Shown here: positions 11,575 through 43,421 of the stretch, piece by piece
Position numbering within the stretch: the stretch's first letter is position 1
Layout: every line of letters begins with the position of its first letter
Source: a virus
Lineage: Duplodnaviria > Heunggongvirae > Uroviricota > Caudoviricetes
Virus record (IMG/VR): IMGVR_UViG_2597489870_000006
Location: 1-57,127 of that record
Reading direction: 5' to 3' (one strand)
Length of the DNA: 57,127 nt
Translations under genes and position numbers: made by a program
The notes under the pieces: generated by a model
Seen by the model: only the letters and a program-made list of their open reading frames with translations
The model's database searches: none
What the model was told of the DNA's origin: nothing

Positions 11575-11650
11575 GCAGGTTACGCTACCACCGGAAACGC
11601 CAATTTCGCTGGTGGTAGCCCAGACAGGGTTGGCGTAACCGGCTCTGAAG
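11575..11650 (-). ncRNA. Structured RNA leader (nested inverted repeats pairing with the downstream SD)
   Basis: On the minus strand CTTCAGA...GGTTACGC...CTACCACC...GGTGGTAG...GCGTAACC...TCTGAAG-GAGG; the outer arm includes the SD of the 11554 gene. Confidence 0.35.
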
Positions 11651-12216
11651 GATACCGGCGCTTCCGAAGAAGCCCCCGCCTGAGCCACCATTGATTGACA
11701 AAGGCGCTGGATTATACACCAACGCCCAAAAAATGGGTGAGTCAGACCTACGACATAAAAAAAGACGCTCGGCGCGTCATATGTCGCCTTCAGAATTTTC
11801 AGGACGCCAATCCCGGCACCCGTTTTATGAGGTGCCTTATAACCATAAACCGTGTTGCCGCATAACGGCAAGCTCTTTTTTATGGACTCCGAAAACTCAC
11901 TATTGGAAGAACCAGAAGCACAGTACATCGCGCTCATTTCGTTAACGTCACGCGCGTGGACGAAGGTTTTTGTGGAGTCACTACACGAGCAGAGAAAGCC
12001 ATCTACGACCAGAAATTCTCTGGCATAGCCGCTGACCTTCTCAACGCTAACACCATCGACCGTAATTTCTGACATAGTTAAGGCATCCGCTCCTACCACC
12101 AGCAAATGATAAACTTTGCTTGTATCTGCTGTATTAATGTCTGACTTTGCTGTCATATTGCTGGATTTTGGCGACATACCAGCCAGTGAAAATATCTTCT
12201 TCTGGGCGGTTAGCAT
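11650..12216 (-). CDS. hypothetical protein, N-terminal part of the 355-aa track ORF (true 3' end uncertain)
   Basis: Protein-like N-terminal about 190 aa; the frame stays open through the structured region and the two SD-bearing small genes, so it is probably not one gene. Confidence 0.3.
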
Positions 12217-14516: not shown

Positions 14517-15731
14517 TCATGCGTGTTTTTCAAACACCATATGCACCACATTTCCGCCATGCTCGAGAGAATCCATATAGTCGGCATACCATTGAAGCAT
14601 CTCCCGCCTTCCATCCAGATATTGCGCATGGTTGTATGTGCCACGAATTGAGTTCTTATCAACGTGAGCGAGCTGCGTTTCTATCCACGCGGTGTTATAG
14701 CCCTGCTCATGCAAAATCGTACTCATAGTGTGCCGGAACCCATGACCAGTTACACGTCCAGCGTAGCCAATGCGCTTAAACACTTGGTTTATGCTGGCCT
14801 CACTCATTGTTTTCCTTGGATCATTGCGCCCGGGAAACATAAGAGGGTAATTGCCTGTTATTTCTCTAATCTTCCCAATAAGCGAAAGAGCCTGCTCAGA
14901 CAATGGCACAATATGAGGCCGCCGCATTTTCATACGTGAAGCGGGTATCTCCCAGAGAGCCTTGTTGAAATCAATTTCATCCCATAATGCGCCACGTAGT
15001 TCGCCAGTCCGCAAGCCTGTGATAATCAGTAGACGAGCCGCCATAACAACCAATGCGCTTCCTGAGTAACTGGACAATGCCTTGAAAAAATCAGGTAATT
15101 CTTTGGCTGTAAGGAAAGGGTAATGATTAGATTCATGGCCTTGCATCGCGCTAGTAAGGTCTGGTGCAGGGTTATACTCTGCGCGACCAGTGACTATTGC
15201 ATAGCGGAAAACTTCCCCGCACCGCTGCCTCACTTTTTTGGCTTTTTCTGTAGCACCGCGCCCCTCGATGCGCCGCAGCACATTCAGAAGTTCAAGTGGT
15301 TTGATTTCGGCGATTGGTTTTTTGCCAATGTAAGGGAACACATCTTTGTTGAAGGCTTCGAGGATGTCTGAAGCATAACCAGCAGACCATTTTTTTAATT
15401 TGCTGCTGTGCCACTCAAGGGCAATATCTTTGAAGGTGTTGTTTAACTGCGTTTCCCGGGCAATCTTTTCCTCTCGTTTCGCTTCCATCGGATCGATACC
15501 ACCAGCGATACCTCTTTTCGCATCTTCACGTTTTGCCCGAGCATCGGCTAGAGTAACCTCAGGATACACACCTAGTGCCAATAGCTTCTCTTTACCAGCC
15601 ACACGATATTTAAGTCGCCAGTATTTACCTCCATTAGGTTTTACCAAGAGATACAAACCGCCACCATCGGCCAGCTTGTAAGCCTTCTCTTTTGGCTTGG
15701 CTGTGTCTATTTGACGGGCATTGAGTTTCAC
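14517..15731 (-). CDS. int: tyrosine integrase, P4 family (404 aa)
   Basis: P4-type integrase N-terminus MKLNARQIDTAKPKEKAYKLADGGGLYLLVKP and C-terminal R...HGFRHT...Y catalytic region; GTG start with SD GGAGG; next to att core. Confidence 0.9.
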   Translation of the reverse strand: MKLNARQIDTAKPKEKAYKLADGGGLYLLVKPNGGKYWRLKYRVAGKEKLLALGVYPEVTLADARAKREDAKRGIAGGIDPMEAKREEKIARETQLNNTFKDIALEWHSSKLKKWSAGYASDILEAFNKDVFPYIGKKPIAEIKPLELLNVLRRIEGRGATEKAKKVRQRCGEVFRYAIVTGRAEYNPAPDLTSAMQGHESNHYPFLTAKELPDFFKALSSYSGSALVVMAARLLIITGLRTGELRGALWDEIDFNKALWEIPASRMKMRRPHIVPLSEQALSLIGKIREITGNYPLMFPGRNDPRKTMSEASINQVFKRIGYAGRVTGHGFRHTMSTILHEQGYNTAWIETQLAHVDKNSIRGTYNHAQYLDGRREMLQWYADYMDSLEHGGNVVHMVFEKHA

Positions 15732-17904: not shown

Positions 17905-18774
<870 letters not shown>

Positions 18775-39418: not shown

Positions 39419-39973
39419 TTATCTTGACTCAAATACAAATCTAGAAGAGATGAGCTTATCAAGCATTTTCATAAGTAAATCCTTACTCTCACCACCATTT
39501 ATATATTTATTAAAGTTAGACTCGAACTCATGCCAAACTTTTTCTAACTCAGTATTATCAAATAAGTGCTCTGTCGCAAACCATGAAGACTGGCAACAAT
39601 CGAAAATACTCAAAAGTTCATCAAATCTTTTAACATTCTCTTCTCCCAACTCAATTTGCTGACTAATAAGATCTACATCTTTAAATAGCCATTTCGCAAT
39701 AACTTGCTCTCGTTCATCATTGAGTTGCTCGGGGTCAATATTGACAGGCATAAATAATAGAGCTGTCTTTAATTTCTTTAATGCATTCCTAAAATCTATT
39801 TTTACTTTTGTTTTCTCTTGTTCCCGCCACGTAAACAATGCCTTGAACGCCAAAAACAAAGTAACAATAGTAGCTCCAGCACTCACCCAAGATGCAATCA
39901 TTGCCCAACAAGCCCACTCAGCAGCAGCACGGTTTGCTACAAGTGTCTCATATGCAATATAATTTTCGTTCAT
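39419..39973 (-). CDS. AT-rich moron: single-pass membrane protein (184 aa), function unknown
   Basis: One N-terminal TM helix (AAEWACWAMIASWVSAGATIVTLFLAF); low GC; lies between lysis cassette and packaging genes. Confidence 0.6.
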   Translation of the reverse strand: MNENYIAYETLVANRAAAEWACWAMIASWVSAGATIVTLFLAFKALFTWREQEKTKVKIDFRNALKKLKTALLFMPVNIDPEQLNDEREQVIAKWLFKDVDLISQQIELGEENVKRFDELLSIFDCCQSSWFATEHLFDNTELEKVWHEFESNFNKYINGGESKDLLMKMLDKLISSRFVFESR

Positions 39974-41069: not shown

Positions 41070-41396
41070 TTACTCCTTAGAGCCACCAAACTTATTACCG
41101 ATTACTCTCATTGCAGCCCCACGAATAGCATCGACCCCGATTAGCCCAACGCCGCCACCAATGGCAACAGAAAGAGATTTAGGCCATCCGACATACTCAA
41201 GAGCGGATGCAAAAGTCAGAGTCAGAGCACCACAGAGCAAAATCTCGAGCGTTTTTCGTTTCCAGCCCCCACCACCGCCAAAATATGCAATGCGCAAGCC
41301 AGCCATAACAATCGACATAATCACTGCGCCCAGCGGTGTGTCTCCACGCCACCAGCTCTGGACCAACTCCAACCAGGTATTTGGGTTATGAGGCAT
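41070..41396 (-). CDS. holin (108 aa)
   Basis: Three hydrophobic segments, immediately upstream of endolysin. Confidence 0.7.
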   Translation of the reverse strand: MPHNPNTWLELVQSWWRGDTPLGAVIMSIVMAGLRIAYFGGGGGWKRKTLEILLCGALTLTFASALEYVGWPKSLSVAIGGGVGLIGVDAIRGAAMRVIGNKFGGSKE

Positions 41397-41530: not shown

Positions 41531-41569
41531 CAGCAACAAAAACGACAAAACCCGCTCGACGGCGGGTTT
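41531..41569 (-). terminator. tR'-like Rho-independent terminator upstream of the lysis genes
   Basis: Stem aaacccgc/gcgggttt followed on the minus strand by ttttgtcgtttttgttg. Confidence 0.55.
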
Positions 41570-41692
41570 AAGCTGTGTGGCGAAGTAACCACTCTTAACA
41601 GATTACAAGAATTTTTGCGGACCGCGTTAATGATTTTTAATCCCAAAGTCGTATTATTCGTTTTTTACTGTAGGAGTTAATAGGTTTATATT

Positions 41693-43024
41693 ATGTTAGA
41701 TACACTATCTTTCACTGAACGTGACGAGTTCCAACGCAGAAGCATCGCTGAAAATATCATCAAGTTGCTAAAACCAGAGGCAGACATTTCACCACTGGTA
41801 ATAGACGGCGCATGGGGAACAGGGAAAACAGAATTTAGTATCAAACTGAAAAATCTCATTATTGAGCAAGAAACTGAATCTAAAGTTGTTTATATTGATG
41901 CCTTTAAAGGGGATCATGCAGAATCTCCATTACTTCTCATAACCTCTGCAATTGCCAGCATTTTACCTGAGGAAGAAAAACAACACTTCATTAAGAGATC
42001 TCTTCCTGCAATTCGCTTTGGTTTAAAAACGGTACTAAAAGCTGGTGCAGGTTGGTTTTTACGACAGGAGGCTAGTGAAGTTTCCGAAGAATTCCAAGAT
42101 GCGATGAAGAAAGCAAGCAATGCAGCAATAGATGGGACTATTGAAAATTTGCTTGAAGACCATATGGAATCAGAGAAAAACATAAATTCACTTAAATCTT
42201 GCATCGAAAGCATTTCAGAAAGTCAAAAGATAGTAATTATAATTGATGAATTAGACCGATGTAAGCCGAGTTTTTCAACAAATGTCATTGAAACAATAAA
42301 ACACATTTTTGACATCAATAATGTCTTTTTTATTTTAGTTACAAACACAGAACAATTAAAAGCATCGATAAATCATATTTATGGTTATAGTATTAACTCA
42401 CAAAAGTATCTTGACAAGTTTATAAAATATACCATCACGCTTCCAGACACATGTTTAATAAATGGTCACGTCGTATGTAAAACATCTGTTATATATTGGA
42501 ATTACCTTGTAGACAAGACAAAATCATTAAATGAAATTAATAGTTTATCTGGTAGATTTATCCGTGATTTAATTCAACGAACCAACTTATCCTTACGTGA
42601 AACACAAACTTTTTCACGCAATCTTAACATTTTTCAACTATTAAACGACGATGAGTACAAAAGCAGTGATCCTTTAATAAATAAGATCTTTGTCGTAGCT
42701 GTCTTCATACATTGCTTTGGTGACAAGGAAAAACTAAAACAAGAAATTACCGCAGAATCTATATCTCATTTAGCAGATCTGCTTAACATAAAAGAAATAC
42801 CTTATTCTTATGAGAGAAGATCGCAAATTCCTGAAATATCTATTGTATTCTTCGGAATAATTAAAGACAGTATTACTCTTAATGAGCGATTTGCCCCTAA
42901 AAGTGATGAAGAACTTAAAAAATTCACCAATGTTTATACTGATTATGAACACCTAAATTTTTGGAGTACTACACCCAGAGAGTTATTGATAAAATATATT
43001 AATCAAATGTCATTCATCCAGTAA
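41693..43024 (+). CDS. KAP-family P-loop NTPase (443 aa), AT-rich, opposite strand to flanking phage genes
   Basis: Walker A VIDGAWGTGKTEFS and KAP-type Walker B VIIIDELDRCKP; low GC; convergent with Q. Confidence 0.8.
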   Translation: MLDTLSFTERDEFQRRSIAENIIKLLKPEADISPLVIDGAWGTGKTEFSIKLKNLIIEQETESKVVYIDAFKGDHAESPLLLITSAIASILPEEEKQHFIKRSLPAIRFGLKTVLKAGAGWFLRQEASEVSEEFQDAMKKASNAAIDGTIENLLEDHMESEKNINSLKSCIESISESQKIVIIIDELDRCKPSFSTNVIETIKHIFDINNVFFILVTNTEQLKASINHIYGYSINSQKYLDKFIKYTITLPDTCLINGHVVCKTSVIYWNYLVDKTKSLNEINSLSGRFIRDLIQRTNLSLRETQTFSRNLNIFQLLNDDEYKSSDPLINKIFVVAVFIHCFGDKEKLKQEITAESISHLADLLNIKEIPYSYERRSQIPEISIVFFGIIKDSITLNERFAPKSDEELKKFTNVYTDYEHLNFWSTTPRELLIKYINQMSFIQ

Positions 43025-43054
43025 ATAATACGCCCCTGCATGGGGCGTATTATT
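43024..43054. terminator. Bidirectional terminator hairpin between the KAP NTPase gene and Q
   Basis: 13-bp inverted repeat AATAATACGCCCC/GGGGCGTATTATT with 5-nt loop, overlapping both stop codons. Confidence 0.6.
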
Positions 43055-43421
43055 AAACGTCCAAATCTAATGTTAGATCTAGCATGGAAAGGCAGCCATC
43101 AATAAATCCTTCGGCTAGCTGTATTTCTATACGTATCAATTTCTCATCCTTTCCACGCGCCTTTGCAATCTTACGCTTGGATATTCTGTATAAATAATGT
43201 GCCACAAGAAGCGAATGCTCATAAGGTCTTTTTTGCTTTAGACGAGCAAGACAACCTTCAATAATTAATGCATCACTATCCGAACAAGCCAAGCGTTTCT
43301 TGCTGGTATAGGGAAGAAGTCCCTTAAACCCAGCAGCTATAGGTGAATAGTCAACGCCTGAACTATCACTCGCCGCCCATGCTCCCCAACGCTCAAGAAC
43401 CATCTGAATATCACGCATCAA
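43053..43421 (-). CDS. late-gene antiterminator Q (small Q family, 122 aa)
   Basis: MMRDIQMVLERWGAWAA... resembles the small antitermination Q family; position before lysis module. Confidence 0.7.
   Translation of the reverse strand: MMRDIQMVLERWGAWAASDSSGVDYSPIAAGFKGLLPYTSKKRLACSDSDALIIEGCLARLKQKRPYEHSLLVAHYLYRISKRKIAKARGKDEKLIRIEIQLAEGFIDGCLSMLDLTLDLDV

Follow-up and report, generated by a model that had tools for sequence, protein, structure and literature searches.

Several systems by which bacteria resist phages rely on nucleoside triphosphatases (NTPases) of the KAP P-loop family. PifA of the F plasmid, a protein of 741 amino acids (aa), aborts infection by phage T7 at the membrane. 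Two further members of this group are single-gene defences with KAP/YobI-like NTPases that depend on their NTPase motifs: tmn defends against phages in a P-loop-dependent manner and is boosted by the Gabija or Septu ATPases, and EF_KAP in a Walker B-dependent manner (PMC12632615). RdrA of RADAR (approximately 800 aa) and QatA of Qat, on the other hand, work with partner proteins, the adenosine deaminase RdrB and QatBCD, respectively. Furthermore, the PDC collection comprises 145 candidate systems that derive from genes lying inside operons of BREX, DISARM or type I restriction-modification (R-M) (Payne et al., bioRxiv 10.1101/2024.01.29.577857), among them the family PDC-S20. Here we describe a gene for a small KAP-family protein in a prophage of Escherichia coli, contained in a 57,127-nucleotide stretch of DNA (IMG/VR record IMGVR_UViG_2597489870_000006, analysed at full length and hereafter called the window). 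The gene is placed antisense between the antiterminator gene Q and the putative late promoter PR', and is probably a stand-alone gene by which the prophage protects its host from other phages. Such an anti-phage role appears well supported by context, and its mechanism is one that we infer.

Comparison with described defence systems

The encoded protein was matched by the Pfam model KAP_NTPase (PF07693) with an E-value of 7.9e-70 (235.8 bits, cutoff 20), aa 15–317 corresponding to positions 1–292 of the 293 in the profile, and since nearly the whole profile is covered at this E-value the assignment is far beyond chance. RefSeq already labels the protein 'KAP family NTPase'. In PADLOC, the PDC-S20 model PDLC04956 aligned end to end (E=9.6e-177; aa 3–442 to profile positions 4–449 of 450), and three further PDC-S20 models matched at 3e-51 to 7e-29. 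The original prediction, made from the sequence without database searches, of a KAP NTPase forming a credible single-gene anti-phage candidate was thus borne out by the profile and defence-database searches together with the homologues in four independent mobile or defence contexts described below, and its descriptive statements (ORF, motifs, AT-richness, hairpin and a terminator resembling tR') were all confirmed by sequence checks. The novelty that it implied was overstated, because PDC-S20 is already listed as a candidate, albeit a bioinformatic one, and defence has been demonstrated for other KAP subfamilies. The gene, being annotated and belonging both to a catalogued candidate family and to a protein class shown to defend, is a good candidate rather than a surprising one. 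A literature search for 'PDC-S20' returned no paper, and the supplements of Payne et al. contained no usable PDC-S20 entry; a search for KAP proteins in lambdoid prophage defence found nothing specific, and neither DefensePredictor nor a domain-centric screen mentions KAP, nor do the papers of Rousset and Vassallo.

The protein had also been called PifA-like. What stands of this is the shared KAP P-loop domain, with Walker A and B motifs of the same style, and the carriage on a mobile element. BLASTP similarity to PifA amounts to 24% identity and covers query aa 11–251 only, the PADLOC model for PifA aligns aa 8–252 to profile positions 14–255 of 720 (61 bits, 1.8e-17), and the C-terminal part of PifA, approximately 470 aa, has no counterpart here. 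In the F plasmid pifC lies immediately upstream of pifA, whereas the KAP gene stands alone with no pifC-type repressor upstream. Orthology to PifA was rejected, as the similarity is confined to the KAP domain, and the further suggestion of a distinct subfamily is supported, the protein being shorter than PifA and lacking transmembrane segments.

No tmn model was found among the PADLOC matches at E<=1. A PDB sequence search with the KAP protein gave zero matches; by fold, the closest solved structure was RdrA, a ring-forming ATPase. This resemblance is structural and concerns RdrA only, and the KAP cassette contains no second gene for an RdrB. The NCBIfam QatA model scored 35.4 bits against a cutoff of 600, the PADLOC QatA match was partial, and no QatBCD genes neighbour the KAP gene.

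Homologues occur in four mobile or defence-embedded contexts

Homologues form a tight family of 440–447 aa across Enterobacterales. The identical protein was found on 288 contigs, and the 90% identity cluster has 2139 members, many of them from Salmonella. In E. coli, 50 of 5426 complete genomes carried an intact copy of the gene, chromosomal every time, and a dN/dS of approximately 0.2 among four E. coli alleles indicates purifying selection.

In Citrobacter (66% identity) and Cronobacter (45% identity), homologues occupy the same position convergent with Q, accompanied by different lysis cassettes and in some cases in clearly degraded prophages. In 186-like prophages, homologues of 44–47% identity were found between cI and the integrase gene, on the same strand as cI, and a defence hotspot has been described at the corresponding site of a P2-related Vibrio phage (Rousset et al.); the Yersinia copy in this slot has a 160-aa neighbour. 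A homologue of 39% identity (locus L104, 7001–8344) lies within a type I restriction operon with the order HsdM-HsdS-DUF4357-KAP-HsdR, the kind of context from which the PDC families were defined, and a small element with genes for an integrase and a primase carries one of 46% identity as cargo. The Q-slot and cI-integrase contexts go beyond the embedding evidence of the PDC paper (10.1101/2024.01.29.577857). That four independent contexts are each mobile or defence-embedded provides the strongest argument for an anti-phage role.

With RdrA and QatA as its nearest fold and profile relatives, both subunits of multi-gene systems, the KAP protein could instead be a non-autonomous defence component, its NTPase acting only with a partner encoded elsewhere, as sensor or switch for another system, as RdrA does with RdrB, QatA with QatBCD, or tmn when boosted by Gabija or Septu. 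Its lack of an effector domain, the documented synergy of tmn with other ATPase systems, the DUF4357 gene beside the homologue in the R-M operon and the 160-aa neighbour in Yersinia are consistent with such dependence. However, the cassette in the Q slot consists of the KAP gene only and travels alone in prophages of Escherichia, Salmonella, Citrobacter and Cronobacter with varied neighbours, and no conserved partner gene was found across the four contexts. We consider this explanation unlikely, if worth keeping in mind.

A 92% identical orthologue on a Salmonella Typhimurium contig (locus L109, 8001–9332) lies in a remnant prophage in which the order holin-KAP-Q-DUF968 is kept, adjoining genes for an LRR- and NEL-containing (sspH2-like) effector and an oafA-like acyltransferase. 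We take this layout to be that of SPI-12, a pathogenicity island of Salmonella. Judged by gene order, the orthologue would be STM2238, with Q as STM2239. In a microarray study STM2238 was weakly PreA-induced and named a 'putative phage protein', and SPI-12 and the Q gene STM2239 have been stated to contribute to fitness (PMC4480994). The fixation of the orthologue in this remnant beside an sspH2-like effector, this fitness contribution and the origin of the window from a human enterotoxigenic strain would suit a lysogenic-conversion or host-fitness gene unrelated to defence, acting for example in host colonisation. We regard this as quite unlikely: the family is found equally in the cI-integrase slots of 186-like prophages, in an R-M operon and in a small integrative element, and in non-pathogens and environmental genera; the genes that replace it in the Q slot of other prophages encode proteins of nuclease, TIR and protease type, as is typical of immunity; and nothing in the KAP sequence points to a secretion or envelope function.

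A cargo slot between Q and the putative late promoter

The insertion of the KAP gene between Q and the putative late promoter was evaluated by a survey of 80 IMG/VR loci with Q relatives of 75–98% identity. These 80 are the best among at least 599 matches, and the frequencies given here are therefore only indicative. A conserved block downstream of Q, described below, served as the far boundary, and its core was present in 61 of the 80 loci. In five of these the slot was empty, with 46 nt from the Q stop codon to the block core, and in the other 56 the distance was 858–2249 nt and the slot was occupied by one of nine cassette types. The same two states are seen in two phages: in 1720a-02 the block comes directly after the Q stop codon and has the same terminator at its end, and in cdtI two unrelated plus-strand genes (orf53/orf54) take the position of the KAP gene. 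As empty-site relatives and relatives with alternative cargo define the same insertion point, the KAP cassette is a self-contained insertion, as originally proposed, and the slot is a hotspot for cargo.

The KAP cassette was found in 10 loci, one of them frameshifted. The most frequent type, a pair comprising a membrane protein of approximately 150 aa and a 313-aa protein (17 loci), equals orf53/orf54 of cdtI. The others encode a protein of 339 aa (7 loci); a protein of approximately 300 aa together with one of 140 aa and, in some cases, one of 89 aa (5 loci); an NYN protein (4 loci; Pfam NYN, 1.3e-09); an SDH/ClpP-like protease (4 loci; Pfam SDH_protease); an HNH protein (4 loci) matching PDC-M68A and CBASS-type HNH effector models (7.5e-27); paired proteins of 142 aa and 379 aa (3 loci); and a TIR protein (2 loci; TIR-TM, 1.7e-57). 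PDC-S42 was also matched among the slot cargos (E=2.3e-32). No PADLOC defence model matched the cdtI-type pair, the 339-aa protein, the protease or the pair of 142-aa and 379-aa proteins, and with at least four of the nine types outside any known defence family, the slot could be a source of new systems. Loci representing the other cassettes are L031, L040, L046, L051, L057, L063, L065, L068, L074, L088 and L096. In one locus (L020) the KAP copy is split by an apparent frameshift into ORFs of 280 aa and 113 aa, and the HNH cargo of L064 is likewise split; slot cargo therefore decays occasionally.

The GC content of the KAP ORF is 0.327 (GC3 0.27), compared to 0.49 for the window and 0.50–0.58 for the flanking phage genes. 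This deviation (0.33 vs 0.49), a site that is empty or otherwise occupied in relatives, and a terminator hairpin of its own all mark the cassette as cargo. The hairpin, which overlaps the stop codon of each convergent gene, has a predicted dG of -21.4 kcal/mol (z = -5.9 vs shuffled sequences), and an inverted repeat after the Q stop codon was found in every occupied representative locus and not in the empty ones. A near-identical IMG/VR copy (L023) has an identical stem with the 5-nt loop (window positions 43037–43041) reverse-complemented; read in the orientation of Q, CCCC-ATGCA-GGGG in the window becomes CCCC-TGCAT-GGGG in that copy, as if the loop had been flipped.

All cargo ORFs of at least 86 aa are antisense to Q, the sole sense-strand ORF being a doubtful one of 78 aa, and an antisense placement of nine out of nine cassette types has a probability of approximately 0.002 under random orientation. 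This bias, the strict convergence of the KAP gene with Q on one common hairpin and its retention in degraded prophages would also be expected of a selfish or regulatory prophage module, either an addiction-type stabiliser or a gene that tunes Q expression and the lysis-lysogeny switch by its convergent transcription and its protein. Nine unrelated cargo types and empty slots in related phages mean that no particular protein is needed for regulation, however, and the same family is found where no Q exists, which leaves such a module very doubtful.

The slot resembles the hotspots of P2 and P4 (Rousset et al. 2022) and the portal-adjacent hotspot of P2 (Vassallo et al. 2022) in that unrelated, defence-type cassettes interchange at a fixed position of the phage backbone. 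It differs from those in its site, the Q-PR' spacer of lambdoid phages with a PF06530-type Q, and in having antisense cargo with its own hairpin terminator. No description of a Q-adjacent (Q-PR') hotspot was found in the searchable literature, and the definition of this slot, together with the minimal KAP architecture, is what the present analysis adds.

Architecture of the KAP protein

Both nucleotide-binding motifs conform to consensus, Walker A to GxxGxGK[ST] and Walker B to the KAP-type pattern hhhhD[DE]LDR, and they were, like N218, invariant or nearly so among 42 homologues. The ATPase core thus appears intact and looks catalytically competent. KAP-family proteins typically carry two or four transmembrane helices inside the P-loop domain, a feature that the 443-aa protein does not show, and transmembrane helices are not a requirement of the Pfam KAP model. 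As first noted from the sequence, there are no membrane-spanning insertions, since no 19-residue Kyte-Doolittle window reached the threshold of 1.6 (maximum mean 1.35). The helical insert between the Walker motifs, presumably at the position where the transmembrane helices of the family are said to lie, is instead predicted to form soluble helices; its structure was modelled only in part and with low confidence. A membrane-binding role of the insert was examined, and its helix 99–116 was found to be only moderately amphipathic (muH 0.58).

The C-terminal domain evolves much faster than the KAP domain, with a mean pairwise identity of 22% vs 55% and a dN/dS of 0.28–0.72 (from small counts) vs 0.09–0.21. 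Searched alone against 1.84 billion representative proteins, it had no credible relative outside the family, the search otherwise giving fragmented, probably compositional matches. The whole protein also matches PHROG 8614, of unknown function. Further fold matches were AAA+/initiator-like proteins, Orc/Cdc6, DnaA and clamp loaders, and the matches from a viral structure library were limited to AAA+/clamp-loader folds of a generic kind plus a single KAP protein from a giant virus. These folds might suggest a function in the lytic cycle, for instance an accessory ATPase for replication or packaging or a factor against defences, but the gene is antisense to the early-right and late operons and lies outside both of them, occurs in non-phage contexts and not in isolated phage genomes, and is dispensable given the empty or differently loaded slots of close relatives, making this highly improbable.

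Prophage setting and the putative late-promoter block

The window is 100% identical to the chromosome of the enterotoxigenic E. coli strain H10407 and takes in an apparently whole prophage integrated at tRNA-Thr beside proA. This prophage resembles phages SfII and SfIV, with lambdoid early genes and a contractile, baseplate-type tail module. The minus-strand order around the cassette is DUF968 gene, Q, [plus-strand KAP ORF], holin, endolysin and Rz/Rz1 (Table 1). A PDB sequence search with Q gave zero matches, and Q is thus not close in sequence to any solved protein.

Between the cassette and the lysis genes lies the conserved block. Its putative -10 element reads TAATCT, TACTGT, TAGTAT, TATCAT, TAATGT or TATCGT in different loci, fitting the sigma-70 -10 pattern TAnnnT, and no good -35 hexamer was found at standard spacing. 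The terminator resembling tR' has its stem at 41569–41548, followed by TGTCGTTTTT to 41538, and phages cdtI and 1720a-02 keep it beside the block. A scan with Rfam detected no known RNA in the block, only C4, isrK and a tRNA elsewhere in the window. Most simply, the block would constitute the Q-dependent late promoter PR', a short leader and tR', placed just ahead of the lysis genes.

Table 1 Features of the KAP cassette and its surroundings, in window coordinates
Feature	Position	Strand	Remarks
Whole cargo cassette: upstream region, KAP gene, terminator hairpin	41640..43052	+	Bounds from empty-slot loci and eight other cargo types
KAP-family P-loop NTPase ORF, 443 aa, ATG start, WP_000887617.1	41693..43024	+	PADLOC candidate family PDC-S20
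Walker A GAWGTGKT, aa 39–46	41807..41830	+	G39, W41, G42, T43, G44 and K45 invariant (42 family members)
Helical insert, aa 93–177, separating the two Walker motifs	41969..42223	+	Predicted soluble, basic; conserved LPAxRFGLKTxLKAGAGW
Walker B IIIDELDRC, aa 182–190	42236..42262	+	D185, E186, L187, D188, R189 and C190 invariant (42 family members)
Hypervariable all-helical C-terminal domain, aa 318–443 (126 residues)	42644..43021	+	Putative specificity/sensor domain
Perfect 13-bp hairpin with 5-nt loop, common to the convergent KAP and Q genes	43024..43054	.	Putative bidirectional terminator
Antiterminator Q, last gene of the early-right operon	43053..43421	-	PF06530 Phage_antitermQ, E=2.3e-51
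Near-invariant palindrome CGCGGTCCGCA	41616..41626	-	Putative Q-binding or -35 region, upstream of the -10; at most one base change in 24 unique variants
Putative PR' -10 element TAATCT	41600..41605	-	TAnnnT kept in 24/24 unique variants
Conserved 28-nt initially transcribed region GTTAAGAGTGGTTACTTCGCCACACAGC (block core)	41572..41599	-	At most 5 mismatches in 61/80 related loci
tR'-like intrinsic terminator: 8-bp stem (5 G-C pairs), 6-nt loop, T-run	41538..41569	-	
Lambda-family holin, first late gene downstream of PR'/tR'	41070..41396	-	

Other parts of the window were noted in passing. A second AT-rich, cargo-like gene (39419–39973, minus strand; GC 0.30–0.39) codes for a protein of 184 aa that has a hydrophobic N-terminal segment and matched nothing in Pfam or PADLOC. 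It is located between the Rz/Rz1 and HNH-terminase genes, upstream of the packaging module, and as close relatives hold other genes at this position (a ClpP-like protease with a hypothetical protein, DUF6979 with KilA-N, or DUF6236) the site appears to be a further variable slot. A separate integrative element makes up the left part of the window, with an integrase of its own (approximately 14517–15731), an antA/AntB antirepressor and a DUF5906 protein; it contains the adjacent C4 antisense RNA (11608–11695, minus strand; 79.9 bits) and isrK (11758–11835, minus strand; 67.8 bits). At the tail-fibre end of the prophage, a LEM-3-like GIY-YIG domain gene (approximately 18001–18774) beside the pinE invertase may be another accessory gene, and a similar gene is found near the Citrobacter KAP prophage (L006, 12175–12948).

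A proposed mode of action and its implications

If the KAP gene protects the lysogen on its own, as we think probable, the protein would be made in the lysogen, where its fast-evolving C-terminal helical domain could recognise a phage-derived trigger. The conserved NTPase would then serve as a nucleotide-driven switch or oligomeriser, with ATP binding and hydrolysis driving an assembly that blocks infection. Because the protein has no separate effector domain, the effector step would be one of three: an action of the basic insert (aa 93–177) on a membrane or nucleoprotein target, consumption of nucleoside triphosphates (NTPs), or remodelling of a phage complex. We hold any particular one of these with much less confidence than the stand-alone role as such. 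The antisense placement upstream of PR' may allow expression in the lysogen while keeping the gene out of both phage operons, and convergent early-right transcription through Q could silence it after induction.

Several observations weigh against a stand-alone defence gene. The PDC systems, PDC-S20 included, are called untested by their source (Payne et al., bioRxiv 10.1101/2024.01.29.577857), and no isolated, sequenced phage genome was found to encode a close homologue. The closest structural and profile relatives, RdrA and QatA, work with partner proteins that are absent here, while tmn and EF_KAP have transmembrane helices and EF_KAP an effector region of approximately 320 aa, compared to only a variable helical tail of 126 aa in the KAP protein, in which no separate effector domain was recognisable. 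Regarding expression, no confident promoter was found for the KAP gene: the sole plus-strand consensus match, TTTACT-17-TATATT (41664–41692), ends at the ATG and cannot serve this start codon because it abuts it, and the best alternative -10-like element, TATTAT (41652–41657), was picked by eye and is not conserved in the cassette of a 67% homologue. A Shine-Dalgarno-like AGGAG is located 15 nt from the start codon, and by our own expectation a gene this AT-rich could be silenced by H-NS.

Tentatively, and with more doubt than for the stand-alone role, two broader readings can be put forward. The Q-PR' spacer of lambdoid phages with a PF06530-type Q might be an unrecognised anti-phage hotspot, whose antisense cassettes are on in the lysogen and overrun by early-right transcription after induction; and KAP proteins without transmembrane or effector domains might represent a distinct solo mode of defence, in which a ring-forming sensor reads its trigger with the variable tail and uses the basic insert or NTP turnover as effector.

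Should the KAP gene prove defensive, PDC-S20 would gain its first tested member; this family is spread among the prophages of Enterobacterales and has become fixed in the remnant of a Salmonella pathogenicity island. The gene would likewise provide a minimal KAP NTPase, with neither membrane anchor nor effector domain, for working out how this class of proteins stops phages. The Q-PR' slot has fixed, conserved flanks by which further candidates could be harvested from lambdoid prophages, including relatives of Shiga-toxin phages, and it suggests a simple transcriptional route by which a defence gene may be on in lysogeny and off in the lytic cycle of the prophage that carries it.

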